A stretch of DNA of 64,000 nt from a bacterium (GTDB taxonomy: Bacteria > Zixibacteria > MSB-5A5 > GN15 > FEB-12). Shown here piece by piece: positions 9,744 to 26,996 of this stretch. The notes beneath the pieces are model-generated. The model was not told the DNA's origin. It saw only the letters and a program-made list of their open reading frames with translations, and ran no database searches. The translations under genes and the position numbers were made by a program. Location: NCBI GenBank assembly GCA_043811375.1, contig JBDRNJ010000036.1, positions 648-64,647 on the forward strand, given 5' to 3'. Position 1 is the first letter of the stretch. Each line of letters starts with the position of its first letter.

Positions 9744-9867
9744 ACCTTTTCGTTTGGTCGATATTTGAGGAGGAATATAGGCAGTCTTCCATTGTCGGGC
9801 AACAGTTTTGAGGCCGATCCCCTCACGAATTGATTGAGAGTAAGCAAAATCCCTTTGTGGTTTTTCT

Positions 9868-10854
9868 CTACATTCTAACTTCCAAACCAGTGTCGATCAG
9901 GTATAAGTTAAAGACATCAATGATGTCCCCCATCGAACTCACCTGAAACAACTTCGGGCGCAACCGGGCGGCACCCGGAAAACCCTTGACATACCAGCCC
10001 AGAGTCCGGCGCATCTTGATCACCCCGCGCGGCTGGCCGTACTGGTCGACCATCAGTTGGGCATGTTGGCAGGCCATCTCTATCCGCTGGGGAATCGTCG
10101 TTTCCGGCAGCAGTTCACCGGTCTCCAAAAAGTGGCTGACCTGTTGGAATACAAACGGATTCCCCAGCGCCGCCCGGCCGATCATTACGGCGTCACAGCC
10201 GGTTTCGTCCAGCATCCGTCTGGCGTCGGCGGGAGTGCACACGTCGCCATTACCAATCACCGGAATGCTTACAGCTTTCTTAAGCCGGCCAATAGCCGTC
10301 CAGTCAGCTTCGCCGGAGAACCCCTTACTGCGGCTGCGGGCATGGAGAGTAACAGCCGCCGCCCCGGCCCGCTGGGCGATCTGTCCAACTTCGAGGTAGA
10401 CCGGAGTAGCCTCATCCCAGCCGGTACGAATTTTGATTGTCACCGGTGTATCACCGGCTGCTTCAACAGTAGCCCGAATTATTTCCTCGGTCAGTACCAG
10501 GTCCTTAAGGACAGCCGCCCCGCCATTGTGTTTGACCACTTTTTTGACCGGGCAGCCGAAATTGATATCAATCAGATCGGGCTTGTTCAGTTCAACTACC
10601 ATCCGGGCTGCCCGCCCCATGACCTCCGGGTTGCCACCAAATAGTTGTATCCCCAGGGGTTGCTCTTCAGAACAGAACTCCATCATGGCCAGCGTCTTTT
10701 TCTGGCGTCGGATTATTCCCTCTGATGAAACCATTTCGGTATAGGTCATGGCCGCGCCGCAACTTAGCGCCAGCAGGCGAAATGGTCGGTTGGAAACCCC
10801 GGCCAGCGGCGCCGCCACTACTCGGCCCTTCAGGTTTAGAATTGCCCTCACCAT
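9868..10854 (-). CDS. dusB: tRNA-dihydrouridine synthase B
   Basis: LAGVSNRPFRLL...TEMVS...INFGCPVKKV...TIKIRTGWD...TLHARS pattern, with a C-terminal helical domain. Confidence 0.88.
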   Translation of the reverse strand: MVRAILNLKGRVVAAPLAGVSNRPFRLLALSCGAAMTYTEMVSSEGIIRRQKKTLAMMEFCSEEQPLGIQLFGGNPEVMGRAARMVVELNKPDLIDINFGCPVKKVVKHNGGAAVLKDLVLTEEIIRATVEAAGDTPVTIKIRTGWDEATPVYLEVGQIAQRAGAAAVTLHARSRSKGFSGEADWTAIGRLKKAVSIPVIGNGDVCTPADARRMLDETGCDAVMIGRAALGNPFVFQQVSHFLETGELLPETTIPQRIEMACQHAQLMVDQYGQPRGVIKMRRTLGWYVKGFPGAARLRPKLFQVSSMGDIIDVFNLYLIDTGLEVRM

Positions 10855-10983
10855 GCCGACAATATAACTGACTGTATAGCCAACTCCAAGAGGTCGTCAG
10901 GAAGCGCGTTCTGTAGCAACAAGATGTGCGACTGAGGGTCGTCTTATTGACACCTGATAACCAGGGACAGAAAGGAATGGCCT

Positions 10984-12427: not shown

Positions 12428-14920
12428 ATGAGCAAGTACTCTTCGTACATCCTGTATCTTCTCATTTCATTCCTGGTGGTCATTTTATATGTGAACGACT
12501 TCGGGCCCCTGAACGACATGCAGCGCTCGCTGGATGACTTCCTCTGTCGTGTAACAACGACCGAAGGCACCCGGCCTAACATAGCCCTGGTGACGATTGA
12601 CGGTAGCGCCCAGAGTGAATTTGGCAACTGGCCGTGGAACCAGGACCTGATTGCCGATCTGCTGGCGGCGGTTGCCGGAGGTGAACCGCGAGCTATTGCC
12701 GTCAACTTCGAACTCAACGAAGACGCCCAACAGGATTCGGCCGGTTATACCGATATCCTGAACGGACAGCTCACCTGGATCGACAACGTGGTTATTCCTT
12801 ATGATATCGCTCTGGCCACTTTCCGCAGCAACAAAACCAGCAATCCGGAACATCTGTTTAACAACTCCATCATGGTCGACAATCCGGTCGGTATTCTGGA
12901 TGAAAGCTCCAGCCTGCTGACCCGAAAGCTTTTTCTGCCGGCCGACAAGCTGCTTCAGTCCAAGCCGTATCTGGGGTTTGTTTATACCATGCCGGATAAG
13001 GACCGGGTCCTGCGCCGACAGCCGCTGGTGATGAATTACGAGGGTTACTACTACCCCTCGCTGTCGTTAATCAGTGCCGCCGTCTACCTGGGCGTGCCCC
13101 CCGATGAAATCAAGGTCATCGAAAACAAGGAGATCCTTCTGAGCAATCAGCGGCGCATACCGATCGACGGCAACAGCCGGTACTTGGTTTCGTTTCCCGG
13201 AACCAATTCCCTCACTCGCTATTCCGCTGCCGAGATTCTTGGCGATGGTTTTGATTTTAGTCGTCTGAAAAACAAGCTGGTGGTACTGGGCCTGGATGAG
13301 TTCATCTCCGGCGAGAGCTTTGACACGCCTGTCCGGACGGGCCTGTCATCGTTGACTTTCCGAGCGGCCGTCATGGAGAACATCATCAACGACAACTTCC
13401 TCACGCCAAAAAACAATCAGCCGCTGGTGATCATGCTGGCCCTGTTCCTGATCGGCGGCCTATGCGCTTTCTTCCTGCCCCAGGTTGGTCTGGTGCATCG
13501 TATGATAATCCTCGCGGTCGGTTTCATCATCCTGGCCAACGCCAACTACTTCCTGTTAAGCTCCTTCAGAATCATCCCCGAGACAATCTACATCGCCCTG
13601 GAGTTGTTGCTGTTTATGATCGCCTGTCCCTTCCTTGACTCGTCATTGTTAACCGGCCGGGACGGCGACACTAAAAACGAAAAGACCAGGCTGCCCAAAA
13701 TCGAAATCGCCCCCCGGACAATTGGGCCGGCGGAGCCGGTGGTGAGAACGATTCGTTCAACGGAACAGGATGCAGAAAACCAACGAACAGTTGCGGTCGG
13801 TGCCGGCAGCGATAAATTCCCTACCGACCACCAGTCGATAGATATCGACGATGAGACCAACGCCGATGCCACACCGGCAATGGGCATCAGTGACGAGGGC
13901 TGGGAAACTGTTGGTGAGACAGAGAAATCCACGGATAAAACCACCACTGAGCAGACTAAAGAGCCTCCCTCAACACCGGAAATCATCTCCCCGGCCGGTC
14001 TGGTTCCGTCGGCACCGACTAAAACGGCTGCAGAATCCGGGAAAACGGAAAGCCGGCAACCGATGCGCCAGGGCTCACAGGAAGAGATCAGAAACCTGGG
14101 ACGATACCAGGTAACCGGCACCCTGGGGAAGGGAGCCATGGGCCTGGTTTACAAGGGCGTTGATCCGGCTATCAATCGACCGGTTGCTCTCAAGACCATC
14201 CGCCTGGATTTTGTCAACGACCCGGATGAGGAAGCCGAACTCAAGGAACGGCTGCACCGTGAAGCCCAGGCCGCCGGCAAGCTGTCGCATCCCAATATCG
14301 TAACCATCTACGACGTCGGTTCCGAGGGACACCTGCAGTATATCGCCATGGAATACCTCGAAGGTCAGACGCTGGAAGATCTGATAAAGAAGAAAACGCA
14401 GTTCAACTACCGGATCATTTCGCAGATGATCATTCAGATTTGCAGCGCCCTGGAGTACGCCCACAACCAGGGTATTGTCCACCGTGATATCAAACCGGCC
14501 AACATTATGGTTCTCAAGAACTACAGTGTCAAGGTGATGGATTACGGTATCGCCCGGGTCGATTCCAGTTCGATGACCAAGACCGGGATCGCTATGGGTA
14601 CCCCCAACTACATCTCACCGGAACAGCTCAAGGGCCAGCCGGTTGACTTGCGCGCCGATATCTTCTCACTCGGCGTTGTCATGTACGAGATGCTGCTGGG
14701 ACGGCGTCCCTTCAAGGGCGAAAACATCACCTCGTTGATCTACGCCATCACGAACCATAATCCGGAGAAACCGTCCAACGTCAACCCGCAAATACCGCTT
14801 CTTTTCGACCATATTATAGATCGGGCTCTCAAGAAGGAGCCTGCTGAGCGTTACCAGAACGCCCGGGAAGTTGCCGCCGATCTGGCTGATTTCGTCGAGT
14901 CATTTGCGTCGAAGTCATAG
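12428..14920 (+). CDS. CHASE2 sensor domain - transmembrane - Ser/Thr protein kinase
   Basis: N-terminal TM helix then a CHASE2-like segment (LVTIDGSAQSEFGNWPWNQDLIADLL...AIAVNFEL), three TM helices around aa 330-400, and a low-complexity T/E/P linker. The Hanks kinase carries GKGAMGLVYKG, VALK, HRDIKPANIM, DYG and SPEQ. Confidence 0.88.
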   Translation: MSKYSSYILYLLISFLVVILYVNDFGPLNDMQRSLDDFLCRVTTTEGTRPNIALVTIDGSAQSEFGNWPWNQDLIADLLAAVAGGEPRAIAVNFELNEDAQQDSAGYTDILNGQLTWIDNVVIPYDIALATFRSNKTSNPEHLFNNSIMVDNPVGILDESSSLLTRKLFLPADKLLQSKPYLGFVYTMPDKDRVLRRQPLVMNYEGYYYPSLSLISAAVYLGVPPDEIKVIENKEILLSNQRRIPIDGNSRYLVSFPGTNSLTRYSAAEILGDGFDFSRLKNKLVVLGLDEFISGESFDTPVRTGLSSLTFRAAVMENIINDNFLTPKNNQPLVIMLALFLIGGLCAFFLPQVGLVHRMIILAVGFIILANANYFLLSSFRIIPETIYIALELLLFMIACPFLDSSLLTGRDGDTKNEKTRLPKIEIAPRTIGPAEPVVRTIRSTEQDAENQRTVAVGAGSDKFPTDHQSIDIDDETNADATPAMGISDEGWETVGETEKSTDKTTTEQTKEPPSTPEIISPAGLVPSAPTKTAAESGKTESRQPMRQGSQEEIRNLGRYQVTGTLGKGAMGLVYKGVDPAINRPVALKTIRLDFVNDPDEEAELKERLHREAQAAGKLSHPNIVTIYDVGSEGHLQYIAMEYLEGQTLEDLIKKKTQFNYRIISQMIIQICSALEYAHNQGIVHRDIKPANIMVLKNYSVKVMDYGIARVDSSSMTKTGIAMGTPNYISPEQLKGQPVDLRADIFSLGVVMYEMLLGRRPFKGENITSLIYAITNHNPEKPSNVNPQIPLLFDHIIDRALKKEPAERYQNAREVAADLADFVESFASKS

Positions 14921-14954
14921 ACGGCACCGGCTTTTGCCGGCACCCGGAAATCAG

Positions 14955-14992
14955 ACGGCGGAACCGTTGCCACCACGGTCCCGCCGTTTTTT
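14955..14992 (+). terminator. Rho-independent terminator of the kinase operon
   Basis: ACGGCGGAACC...GGTCCCGCCGT stem (7 bp plus 3 bp with one mismatch, 11-nt loop), followed by TTTTTT at 14987-14992. It lies 35 nt after the stop. Confidence 0.75.
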
Positions 14993-15021
14993 ATTGTAGA
15001 AGATGTAAGGCAGCCGATATC

Positions 15022-15075
15022 TGTCACCCTGAGCGGAGTCGAAGGGTGCCATGCCTCGACTCCGTTCAGCATGAC
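15022..15075. repeat. Head-to-head pair of about 26-nt GTCA-NN-CTGAGCGGAGTCGAAG-NN-TG elements forming a long composite palindrome
   Basis: TGTCACCCTGAGCGGAGTCGAAGGGTG plus the inverted diverged copy CCATGCCTCGACTCCGTTCAGCATGAC. A 14-bp arm CTGAGCGGAGTCGA pairs with TCGACTCCGTTCAG (one G:U). Related copies lie at 26667, 26917 and 26968. Confidence 0.8.
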
Positions 15076-15163
15076 TATCCCACCGTGCTGTCAGATTTCT
15101 ATAGGCTGAGGTGGCGCACCTCTTGAGGTGCGTTTACAGTTCTTCTTACAATCAATCTATAAG

Positions 15164-15193
15164 ATGGAAAAGAAACTCACCGCAAGCGGTGAG
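15164..15193 (-). terminator. Rho-independent terminator downstream of the EVE-like/nuclease gene
   Basis: On the minus strand CTCACCGC-TT-GCGGTGAG (perfect 8-bp arms, so effectively a 7-bp stem with a 4-nt loop) is followed by TTTCTTTTCC. It lies about 100 nt after the stop at 15294. Confidence 0.6.
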
Positions 15194-15293
15194 CCACCCA
15201 CCACGATCTTTGATCGCGGTTCTTCTTCTGCGATCGCAGATCGCGGCCAAACCTGCCGAGAGTCGGTGTGATCGTTTTCTTATTATGTTGCAT

Positions 15294-16085
15294 TTAGATA
15301 ATTCGTACTCGTAACACTTTTATATCTGCCTCCTTTGCAGCGAGACGAAGCTGTTCATCAAAGGAAGGCGTCAGAATAATACCTTTCACTTCCTTTCCTT
15401 CTTTTTGTGCCCAGTTTTCCCTTATGTACCCCATGTAACGAAGTATCTGCCCAACAGCATTATCAGACGTGTGAACAGCCTTAAGTTCAAGCACAATATA
15501 ATTATCTTTTTCGTCTCGGCATATCAAGTCAGTTCTTCCACTCCCTATTCCAAGACTGCATTGCTGTTGAATATCCTCTTCTGCCAACCGAAGTTTGAGT
15601 TGCGAAAGGTTTGCCTTAACTGCTTCTTCAATACCTGACTCCAAGATAAAGAAGCTACCATCGGATTCGCCGTACCCAAGGTTTCGATATATCTTTCGAG
15701 CGAGCTCTATCTTGTCTTTGTCATCATCTGTTGCTGTTGCGATTCTTAATCTGTGGTTTTGGTTTGATAATTCAGAGCGAATCACTTCATATGGCAGGGT
15801 TACTTTCCATTTCTTTATATTGTCTATTGGAAACCACCCCGCTTTTTTCTGGTGCTTTTCTTCAACCCTTTCATCCTCAACCCAGTCATCAGATATTTTA
15901 CACGTTCCCCAAAAGCCCAATCCATATTCGCGAAGTAATACAGCATCCCCTTTTTCAACCTTAGCTCGATTAGATTCACTCGTTTTAAAGTAATAATGTT
16001 TGGTTTTAAGAATGGTCGAGGTGTCCCAATCGGAATCTTCGTAGTAGCCAGGAGAGTTATTCGAGAAAATCCATACTTTTGCCAT
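15294..16085 (-). CDS. Fusion protein: N-terminal PUA-like/EVE-like domain plus C-terminal NucS/DUF91-type PD-(D/E)xK nuclease domain
   Basis: C-terminal half: GRTDLICRDEKDNYIVLELKAVHTSDNAVGQILRYMGYIRENW...VKGIILTPSF gives the D...E-x-K core and the NucS-like Q-x-x-x-Y pattern. N-terminal half: VWIFS...KVEKGDAVLLREYG..GFWGTCKI...WFPIDNIKKWKV...RLRIATAT follows the EVE strand order. The gene is AT-rich: 51 of 120 nt are G+C at 15301-15420, against 68 of 120 at 14101-14220 (hand counts). Confidence 0.6.
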   Translation of the reverse strand: MAKVWIFSNNSPGYYEDSDWDTSTILKTKHYYFKTSESNRAKVEKGDAVLLREYGLGFWGTCKISDDWVEDERVEEKHQKKAGWFPIDNIKKWKVTLPYEVIRSELSNQNHRLRIATATDDDKDKIELARKIYRNLGYGESDGSFFILESGIEEAVKANLSQLKLRLAEEDIQQQCSLGIGSGRTDLICRDEKDNYIVLELKAVHTSDNAVGQILRYMGYIRENWAQKEGKEVKGIILTPSFDEQLRLAAKEADIKVLRVRII

Positions 16086-16183
16086 TTTTCACACTACCTT
16101 TCCATTGCAACATAATGCAGGGCGGCTCACAGCTTGCTGTGTGTTCTTCAAGACGAATTGGCAGTAGCGCATGGACCCCCGCC

Positions 16184-16645
16184 CTACTTTTTCTCCTGCT
16201 TCCCCTGCGAAAGTATCTCCTCGGCCAGCGACATAGCCACACCGGAGAGCATTACCTCTACACCCAGTTGCGTGAAATCTGATGAGATCAGTTCGCGGTT
16301 GAGAGCCGCATACATCGAACAGGAAGCCCCTTTTTCGACTACCAGTCCGGACAACCGGTCATCTTTTTCAGCCACGAACGTAACTTCACCCAGTTCCTCG
16401 GAGATAACGTAGCCGGTGCAATTGTGGAGCTGCAGGTGCGAGTTGCCGGTGTAGATCACCACCAGCATACCGCTGGTCTCTCCCAACGACGTTTCGGGGT
16501 ATATCTCCAGCGACAGCGCCCGCTTCTCTTCAGGATTATCAACCTTGAGACGGAAATGGTCCTTCAGAGAGCTTACATCCCCGGCGCCGATAACCGCGGC
16601 GATGCGGTCAATATCTTTTTTTGAAATTTTGTCGGCCACAATCAA
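16184..16645 (-). CDS. Hypothetical protein, 153 aa, no recognised domain
   Basis: The ORF has host-like composition and sits 18 nt downstream of tatA on the same strand. I recognise no motif. Confidence 0.5.
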   Translation of the reverse strand: MIVADKISKKDIDRIAAVIGAGDVSSLKDHFRLKVDNPEEKRALSLEIYPETSLGETSGMLVVIYTGNSHLQLHNCTGYVISEELGEVTFVAEKDDRLSGLVVEKGASCSMYAALNRELISSDFTQLGVEVMLSGVAMSLAEEILSQGKQEKK

Positions 16646-26666: not shown

Positions 26667-26692
26667 CACCCTTGGACTCCGCTCAGGGTGAC
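26667..26692 (-). repeat. Copy of the GTCACCCTGAGCGGAGTC-N-AAGGGTG element
   Basis: The reverse complement GTCACCCTGAGCGGAGTCCAAGGGTG differs at one position from 15023-15048. Confidence 0.8.
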
Positions 26693-26967: not shown

Positions 26968-26996
26968 TGTCATGCTGAGCGGAGTCGAAGCATGAC
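26968..26996 (+). repeat. Copy of the element: TGTCATGCTGAGCGGAGTCGAAGCATGAC (stem CATGCT/AGCATG, 12-nt loop)
   Basis: It has the same loop GAGCGGAGTCGA as 15023-15048, but the stem bases have changed in a compensatory way (CACCCT/AGGGTG versus CATGCT/AGCATG). Confidence 0.8.

Follow-up and report, generated by a model that had tools for sequence, protein, structure and literature searches.

What kind of enzyme is encoded by a lone AT-rich gene at the very end of a housekeeping array in a Zixibacteria-lineage bacterium, and how did the gene come to lie there? The question is raised by a 64,000-nucleotide (nt) stretch of DNA (contig JBDRNJ010000036.1, positions 648 to 64,647; below, "the window" is this whole stretch), in which an open reading frame (ORF) of 263 amino acids (aa) on the minus strand (15294..16085, including the stop codon) joins an EVE-like putative reader domain to a NucS_C nuclease domain. 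Our best explanation, with a probability of about 0.58, is that its product is a stand-alone restriction nuclease that depends on DNA modification (type IV-like). Its G+C content is 0.409 compared with 0.548 window-wide; it is the G+C minimum among all 792-nt windows of the 64 kb and lies about 5 standard deviations below the mean (mean 0.548, standard deviation 0.027). The sequence-only reading of this locus had called the gene AT-rich on hand counts and had quoted nine motifs from its product. The counts were exact (51 of 120 nt are G+C at 15301-15420 and 68 of 120 at 14101-14220), and all nine motifs were located, at aa 4, 42, 57, 84, 112, 183, 197, 212, and 234.

Two domains in one chain

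The C-terminal part of the protein (aa 180-263; 15297..15548, minus strand) is a NucS_C domain of the PD-(D/E)xK type, in agreement with the NucS/DUF91-type core proposed earlier. The Pfam profile NucS_C (PF01939) matches aa 180-260 with an E value of 1.3e-10 (41.8 bits, cut-off 24), Foldseek retrieves 5gkj, 5gke, and 2vld for this domain, and alignment places D186, E200, K202, Q213, and Y217 in register with EndoMS (5gke) and NucS (2vld). Among 37 homologues, D186, K202, Q213, and Y217 are invariant and E200 is nearly so. Judged by profile scores, the protein is not a NucS orthologue, because the NCBIfam NucS equivalogs stay far below their cut-offs (NF003270, 42 bits versus 216; NF002876, 25.7 bits versus 252); the NucS_N domain also has no Pfam match in the protein. 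A NucS-like catalytic domain would suit a housekeeping DNA-repair paralogue of NucS/EndoMS, which would recognize mismatched, damaged, or deaminated host bases via a substitute N-terminal domain, and NucS itself also inspects flipped-out bases, as seen in EndoMS-DNA structures. We regard this as the weakest of the alternatives and highly improbable; the equivalog scores already argue against it, as do the N-terminal fold and the distribution of the gene described below.

The N-terminal part (aa 1-135; 15681..16085, minus strand) adopts, in its AlphaFold2 model, a PUA-like EVE fold and is a presumed reader of modified bases. The model of the domain folded alone has a predicted local distance difference test (pLDDT) value of 91.2 and a predicted template modelling score (pTM) of 0.84, and the pLDDT of this region exceeds 90 in the full-length model too. 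The best Foldseek matches of the domain model are EVE proteins (2gbs, 2p5d, 2ar1, 5j3e, 1wmm, 6yex, and 1zce; TMq 0.61-0.70, probability 1.00), which supports the assignment of a PUA-like reader fold and bears out the EVE/PUA-like N-terminal half suggested from the letters of the sequence. They include human THYN1 with 5-methylcytosine DNA (5j3e, TMq 0.70) and the EVE-HNH restriction enzyme VcaM4I (6yex, TMq 0.68). The 50 listed matches are all EVE, YTH, ASCH, or McrB N-terminal domains, plus DrmA of the DISARM system; none of the 50 is a NucS entry, which also speaks against the repair paralogue. At the level of sequence profiles, the Pfam EVE profile has no match to the protein at E <= 1, and a profile of 24 sequences searched against all PDB sequences returned nothing meaningful for this domain. 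The residues W5, F7, N9, Y31, Y32, E37, N39, R40, D47, R52, Y54, W59, W68, D71, F85, and W93 are invariant.

An exhaustive HMMER search with the N-domain profile through 1.84 billion representatives recovered only 56 clusters, most of which are the same fusion or fragments. In two of them (P0154 and P0158, of 553 and 685 aa), the N-domain is combined with an McrB GTPase motor (Pfam AAA_5; NCBIfam McrB, E values of 1.6e-30 and 2.7e-40). McrB is the classical type IV restriction motor and belongs to a modification-dependent system, for which, by these sequence matches, the N-domain family provides the specificity. That the reader is shared with McrB is therefore an independent argument that its role is to read modified DNA. 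In a further cluster (P0140, 340 aa), the N-domain family is joined to a DUF7662 domain.

The linker between the two domains (aa 136-179; 15549..15680, minus strand) is partly helical and of low confidence: in the full-length model, pLDDT falls below 50 at aa 140-150 and aa 175-183; thus, the relative arrangement of the two domains is not fixed by the model. Such a linker would permit domain rearrangement in the manner of a Shedu-type sensor-gated immune nuclease, whose PUA-like domain would not sense a base modification but, for example, free DNA ends, single-stranded nucleic acid, RNA, or a nucleotide, and would release an auto-inhibited, sequence-non-specific NucS-like nuclease during infection. 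The DUF4263 nuclease of Shedu is distantly related to NucS (10.1101/2023.08.10.552762), Shedu N-terminal domains have a sensing, regulatory role, and PUA, EVE, or SRA domains are present in 45 Shedu proteins (10.1101/2023.08.10.552793). However, the window protein has no match to DUF4263 (PF14082, Pfam, E <= 1) or to SduA (PADLOC), the best structural neighbors of its reader are base-flipping readers of modified bases, the same reader occurs on McrB, and even for the PUA class of Shedu, a type IV-like mode is what the authors of the Shedu study predict (10.1101/2023.08.10.552793). We consider sensor gating of this kind unlikely, although the defence contexts described below fit it equally well.

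Cassette structure in relatives and insertion at the host locus

Judged from the boundaries seen in relatives, the family is an integron gene cassette with the order G/TTATGTTGC, ribosome-binding site, ORF, GCAACATAAC, and attC, and it is promoterless. This vehicle was missed by the sequence-only reading; it is an addition of the present analysis, as are its conserved boundary, the proof of insertion from empty sites, and the reader-McrB link. Compared with the closest genomic relative (L008; 82% nt identity), the DNA homology of the window is confined to 16115..15280, which corresponds to the ORF with 30 nt before and 14 nt after it. The edges of this homology coincide with the two arms of a perfect 11-nt inverted repeat on either side of the ORF (16106-16116 and 15282-15292). 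On the gene strand (minus), the upstream arm at 16106..16116 reads ATTATGTTGCA and corresponds to the R' box G/TTATGTTGC of relatives; the downstream arm at 15282..15292 reads TGCAACATAAT and corresponds to their attC R'' box ACATAAC, ending in AAT here. The boundary repeat in the window is therefore degenerate, with ATT/AAT instead of GTT/AAC.

A perfect inverted repeat of >=8 nt, placed at -10..-47 and +1..+23, is found at 17 of 37 distinct loci (shuffle p <= 0.03 at each); 12 of these 17 begin with GTTATGTT, 22-32 nt before the ATG, and the complement mostly lies 1-8 nt past the stop codon. An integron cassette is expected to have a 5' end G/TTRRRY that is complementary to the R'' box RYYYAAC opening its own attC; a boundary repeat complementary to the gene's own R'' is therefore an integron-cassette signature. 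Under one uniform criterion, an attC-like hairpin follows the gene at 13 of 35 distinct loci compared with 6 of 140 shuffles; the criterion was a constrained fold, since a duplex-based test was too strict and lost even the clearest sites. The attC of locus L027 (ACATAAC...GTTAGGC) spans 61 nt with -20.5 kcal/mol, that of L022 (CTCTAAC...GTTAGCG) spans 66 nt, similar sites are present at L041, L044, and L053, and others are visible by eye.

At a locus from Halieaceae (L024, the same as L013), the gene lies between two 150-nt attC hairpins (9817-9973 and 10797-10953) that are 96% identical over 138 nt and are situated directly after a lon gene. The upstream R' box GTTATGT matches the cassette's own R'' box ACATAAC, whereas the downstream R' box GTTAGCG does not, which is exactly what site-specific recombination predicts. 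In Photobacterium indicum, the gene is found within a run of small ORFs on the same strand, and on our reading of the sequence a neighboring acetyltransferase cassette ends in a Vibrio-type attC. No integrase gene occurs within 10 kb at L002, L022, or L024, and these sites look like the CALIN/SALIN type (attC sites lacking an integron integrase). The Halieaceae locus is a small attC cluster without integrase that adjoins transposases and two methyltransferases.

No intact attC was found at the window copy by three scans. Cassettes are known to insert at GWT sites outside integrons, to be expressed from a resident promoter, and to lose their attC by slippage (10.1101/2022.09.11.507474); all three properties fit the window copy. 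Its host locus is well preserved elsewhere: relatives of the upstream neighbor p153 (153 aa; 16184-16645, minus strand) are found in 80 species-level genomes, almost all labelled as Zixibacteria or Ignavibacteriales metagenome-assembled genomes (MAGs), and the order purQ-tatA-p153, converging on a kinase and a phosphoesterase, is kept in 72 of the 80. The nuclease gene is present in 0 of these 80 p153-bearing relatives. In the window, the convergent intergenic region holding the gene (14921..16183) measures about 1,263-1,264 nt between the two stop codons, compared with gaps of 53-157 nt in the ten closest relatives examined; most of the empty gaps shown hold one obvious terminator hairpin. 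The short empty gaps and the absence from relatives therefore show that the nuclease gene is an insertion; with the G+C deficit, absence from syntenic relatives also upholds the horizontal acquisition claimed earlier. At 17 of 19 other loci, the homologue is likewise AT-richer than its flanks, by 3-15 points. A repair gene would find a natural place at the end of a housekeeping operon, but absence from all 80 relatives, varying contexts, a patchy distribution across phyla, AT-richness, and carriage on a cassette all count against the repair paralogue.

The gap between p153 and the kinase carries other inserts in related species (L073 5459-7608, L150 5435-7494, L084, L138, and L142) and may be a recurrent landing spot for accessory genes. 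These inserts include ORFs with HEPN-like Rx4H motifs (Pfam HEPN_RiboL-PSP, E value of 0.005, below the cut-off); as such weak, sub-cut-off matches are all that they gave, we do not claim a defence hotspot at this site.

Family, neighborhoods, and predicted function

The family comprises 183 matches at E <= 0.001; among the 120 matches listed, nearly all are about 263 aa long and share 64-87% identity. Their hosts are distributed patchily across phyla and include Deltaproteobacteria, Planctomycetota, Vibrionaceae, other Gammaproteobacteria, Flavobacteriales, and Actinomycetota. The dN/dS ratio against the closest relatives is about 0.07-0.08, and the window copy is therefore under purifying selection. 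No tblastn match was found among 50,697 phage records, and BFVD contained no full-length viral analogue; plasmids yielded distant relatives only, with <=36% identity and none covering 80% of the query.

Members of the family or more distant relatives lie between hsdS and hsdR in three independent type I restriction-modification (R-M) operons: next to a HEPN gene (L001), next to an Abi gene on the Acinetobacter plasmid pAP2044-1 (L026), and together with Schlafen/AlbA_2 and PIN genes on an IMG/VR contig (L071). Other copies adjoin hipBA and higBA-like pairs, a DUF433-PIN pair with an R-M system, BrnT, transposases, methyltransferases, or the tail end of a prophage. Because no neighbor is conserved across loci, the protein probably works alone. 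Two profiles of the PADLOC candidate system PDC-S02 match the window protein (PDLC04824, E value of 1.4e-14, aa 181-260; PDLC04799, E value of 1.4e-13, aa 45-248). A defence role is thus supported by context, namely, the three type I R-M operons, the toxin-antitoxin and transposase neighbors, the PDC-S02 profiles, and the occurrence of the reader on McrB.

The same neighborhoods could also be read in terms of a cassette-stabilizing toxin or selfish nuclease, kept not for blocking phages but because its loss or silencing harms the cell, like the toxin-antitoxin cassettes of chromosomal integrons. The cassette vehicle, the frequent toxin-antitoxin neighbors, the very strong conservation, and the wide horizontal spread are in its favor; however, the gene consists of one ORF and lacks a conserved partner in the role of antitoxin, its neighbors differ at every locus, the window copy persists without attC and with no array to stabilize, and the three placements in R-M operons point to defence. 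We judge a toxin of this type to be decidedly unlikely.

In the window, reader and nuclease are part of one chain and no methyltransferase is encoded among the ten nearest genes, which is the arrangement expected of a type IV enzyme. As a type IV-like restriction nuclease, the protein would bind DNA through its N-terminal EVE-type PUA domain, and a flipped-out modified base would enter a predicted, conserved aromatic pocket. Capture of the base would keep the C-terminal NucS-type domain (D186/E200/K202) on the marked DNA, where it would cut both strands nearby, probably as a dimer like NucS. Host DNA would not carry the mark, so that no partner methyltransferase would be needed. The gene would spread as a promoterless integron cassette and, in this genome, would have settled 3' of the genes of the tatA-p153 operon, with loss of its attC.

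Several observations weigh against restriction of modified DNA by this protein. EVE and YTH domains read RNA as well as DNA, and the reader domain is recognizable by fold alone and is missed by sequence profiles. An identity of 64-87% across phyla is unusually conservative for a defence gene, and several homologues stand alone between housekeeping genes, where no further defence gene is seen. In the only test of PDC-S02 found in the literature, one representative, whose similarity to the window protein is not given, did not protect Escherichia coli B against T4, T5, or T7 (10.1101/2024.09.26.614923).

A bolder version of the type IV-like reading would make this protein the founding member of a compact restriction class. 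NucS-type nucleases normally cleave the two strands a set, short distance from a flipped base; in this class, an EVE reader would redirect such a nuclease to a particular base modification of phages, which may be one that no known enzyme recognizes, and a dedicated integron cassette with a conserved boundary would have carried the gene into six or more phyla. We offer this version tentatively, as a possibility with the odds against it.

The surrounding locus and related systems

The nuclease gene follows the same-strand run purB-psd-pssA-purS-purQ-DUF4321-tatA-p153, of which it is the last member, as the earlier description of a gene at the end of a housekeeping array implied; its convergent neighbor is a CHASE2 Ser/Thr kinase gene. 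The product of p153 has no Pfam match; the gene is conserved after tatA in 80 Zixibacteria-type species and is uncharacterized and lineage-wide. A ribosome-binding site, GGAAAGG (16097..16103, minus strand), is located 12-18 nt before the ATG within the conserved 30-nt cassette leader and is conserved in L008; the leader contains nothing else. Since the terminator scan listed no minus-strand terminator between 16086 and 16184, transcripts that read through from the tatA-p153 operon are a plausible, and the likely, means by which the nuclease gene is expressed. An imperfect 77-nt hairpin (16114..16190), detected by the inverted-repeat scan, extends from the p153 stop codon to the exact cassette boundary and could be the old host terminator or the remnant of an upstream attC.

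Downstream of the gene, two further features of the sequence-only reading were recovered, a terminator of its own and a palindromic pair on the left flank. The minus-strand terminator-like hairpin (stem 15195..15174, followed by a T-run; 15164..15195 in total) lies about 100 nt past the stop codon. It is also one copy of a 26-nt hairpin repeat, GGTGGCnCACCnCTTGnGGTGnGTTT, present as a single inverted pair at 15110-15135 (plus strand) and 15173-15198 (minus strand), so that the minus-strand copy doubles as the terminator of the nuclease gene. By chance, 0 matches are expected, and no shuffle reproduces the pair; at two base pairs the copies are not alike, and both changes are compensatory (T-A to G-C and G-C to T-A). 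A genome-wide repetitive extragenic palindromic (REP) element was rejected for the window, as there is one inverted pair only in the 64 kb, and an attC was rejected because the GTT and AAC of the repeat do not follow the order required for an attC. The stretch from the end of the cassette to the terminator contains GATC-rich repeats, both direct and palindromic (CGATCTTTGATCGCGG and CGATCGCAGATCGCGG; 15204-15246); they belong to about 375 nt of extra DNA missing from the empty sites of relatives. A dispersed repeat, CTGAGCGGAGTCGAAGGGTG, has three copies in the window (15029-15048, 26667-26686, and 26975-26994), is part of an inverted repeat with 20-nt arms at 15023-15075, and, as judged from an ORF translation, also occurs in a related Zixibacteria MAG (L111 5528-5815); it looks like a small element of the lineage, of the REP type or of the miniature inverted-repeat transposable element (MITE) type.

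The sequence-only reading could match the domain pair to no characterized enzyme, and none was found here either; it did not know that the class had already been predicted computationally. For EVE-PD(D/E)XK fusions, a function as type IV restriction endonucleases has been predicted (Bell, Wolf and Koonin 2020, PMC7641849), and they have the same two-part architecture and the same predicted role as the window protein; that census makes no mention of NucS or DUF91. The characterized EVE-HNH enzymes VcaM4I and TspA15I, for which dependence on 5-methylcytosine (5mC) and 5-hydroxymethylcytosine (5hmC) has been measured (PMC7897488, PMC6765204), also place an N-terminal EVE reader on a C-terminal nuclease in one small polypeptide without a methyltransferase; however, their nuclease is HNH rather than PD-(D/E)xK, there is no detectable sequence similarity, and modification dependence of the window protein is predicted rather than measured. 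NucS/EndoMS (2vld, 5gke) is alike in its C-terminal catalytic domain, where the D-E-K triad and the Q/Y residues align with those of the window protein, but has NucS_N and is a lineage-wide repair gene, whereas the window protein has an EVE-like N-domain and belongs to a mobile, patchily distributed family. Type 1E Shedu (PUA/EVE/SRA plus DUF4263) likewise joins a PUA-fold sensor to a PD-(D/E)xK nuclease in one chain (10.1101/2023.08.10.552793), with DUF4263 in place of NucS_C. The N-domain family also occurs on McrB GTPase motors, but McrBC is a two-gene, GTP-driven translocating system, whereas in the window protein the reader is fused directly to the nuclease. The END nucleases (PMC12191111) are not this family, as their sensor is an inactivated EndoIII. 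The protein is best described as an uncharacterized family inside an already predicted kind, which falls outside both NucS proper and Shedu and which the Pfam EVE profile does not detect.

Defence genes have been described on integron cassettes before, as in the bacteriophage resistance integron cassettes (BRiCs; 10.1101/2024.07.02.601719). Like BRiCs, this family is a defence candidate of one gene that travels as an integron cassette with attC; unlike them, the window copy lies outside any integron and is without attC (the window was not scanned for intI). The family motifs were not found in the BRiC supplement (10.1101/2024.07.02.601719), and a possible match to the cassette Brc142, annotated as a "putative dimeric restriction endonuclease," was not confirmed for this reason.

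A surprise for specialists is unlikely, and the family is rather a clean, testable candidate. MspJI, AbaSI, and VcaM4I are used for mapping DNA modifications; if the window protein cuts modified DNA, its very small single-chain combination of an EVE reader with a NucS-type nuclease would be a candidate tool for the same purpose, and the reader is divergent enough that a new specificity is possible. If it does found a class of its own, it would provide a new mapping tool and would be the first type IV enzyme whose spread can be traced to integron recombination, including solitary insertions outside integrons. The family offers a case study of such spread, from integron arrays (Photobacterium, Halieaceae) through solitary cassettes (L022) to an attC-less copy that is fixed behind a housekeeping operon of a distant phylum. 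This case agrees with recent proposals that antiphage genes are banked in integrons and that cassettes can settle outside integrons.

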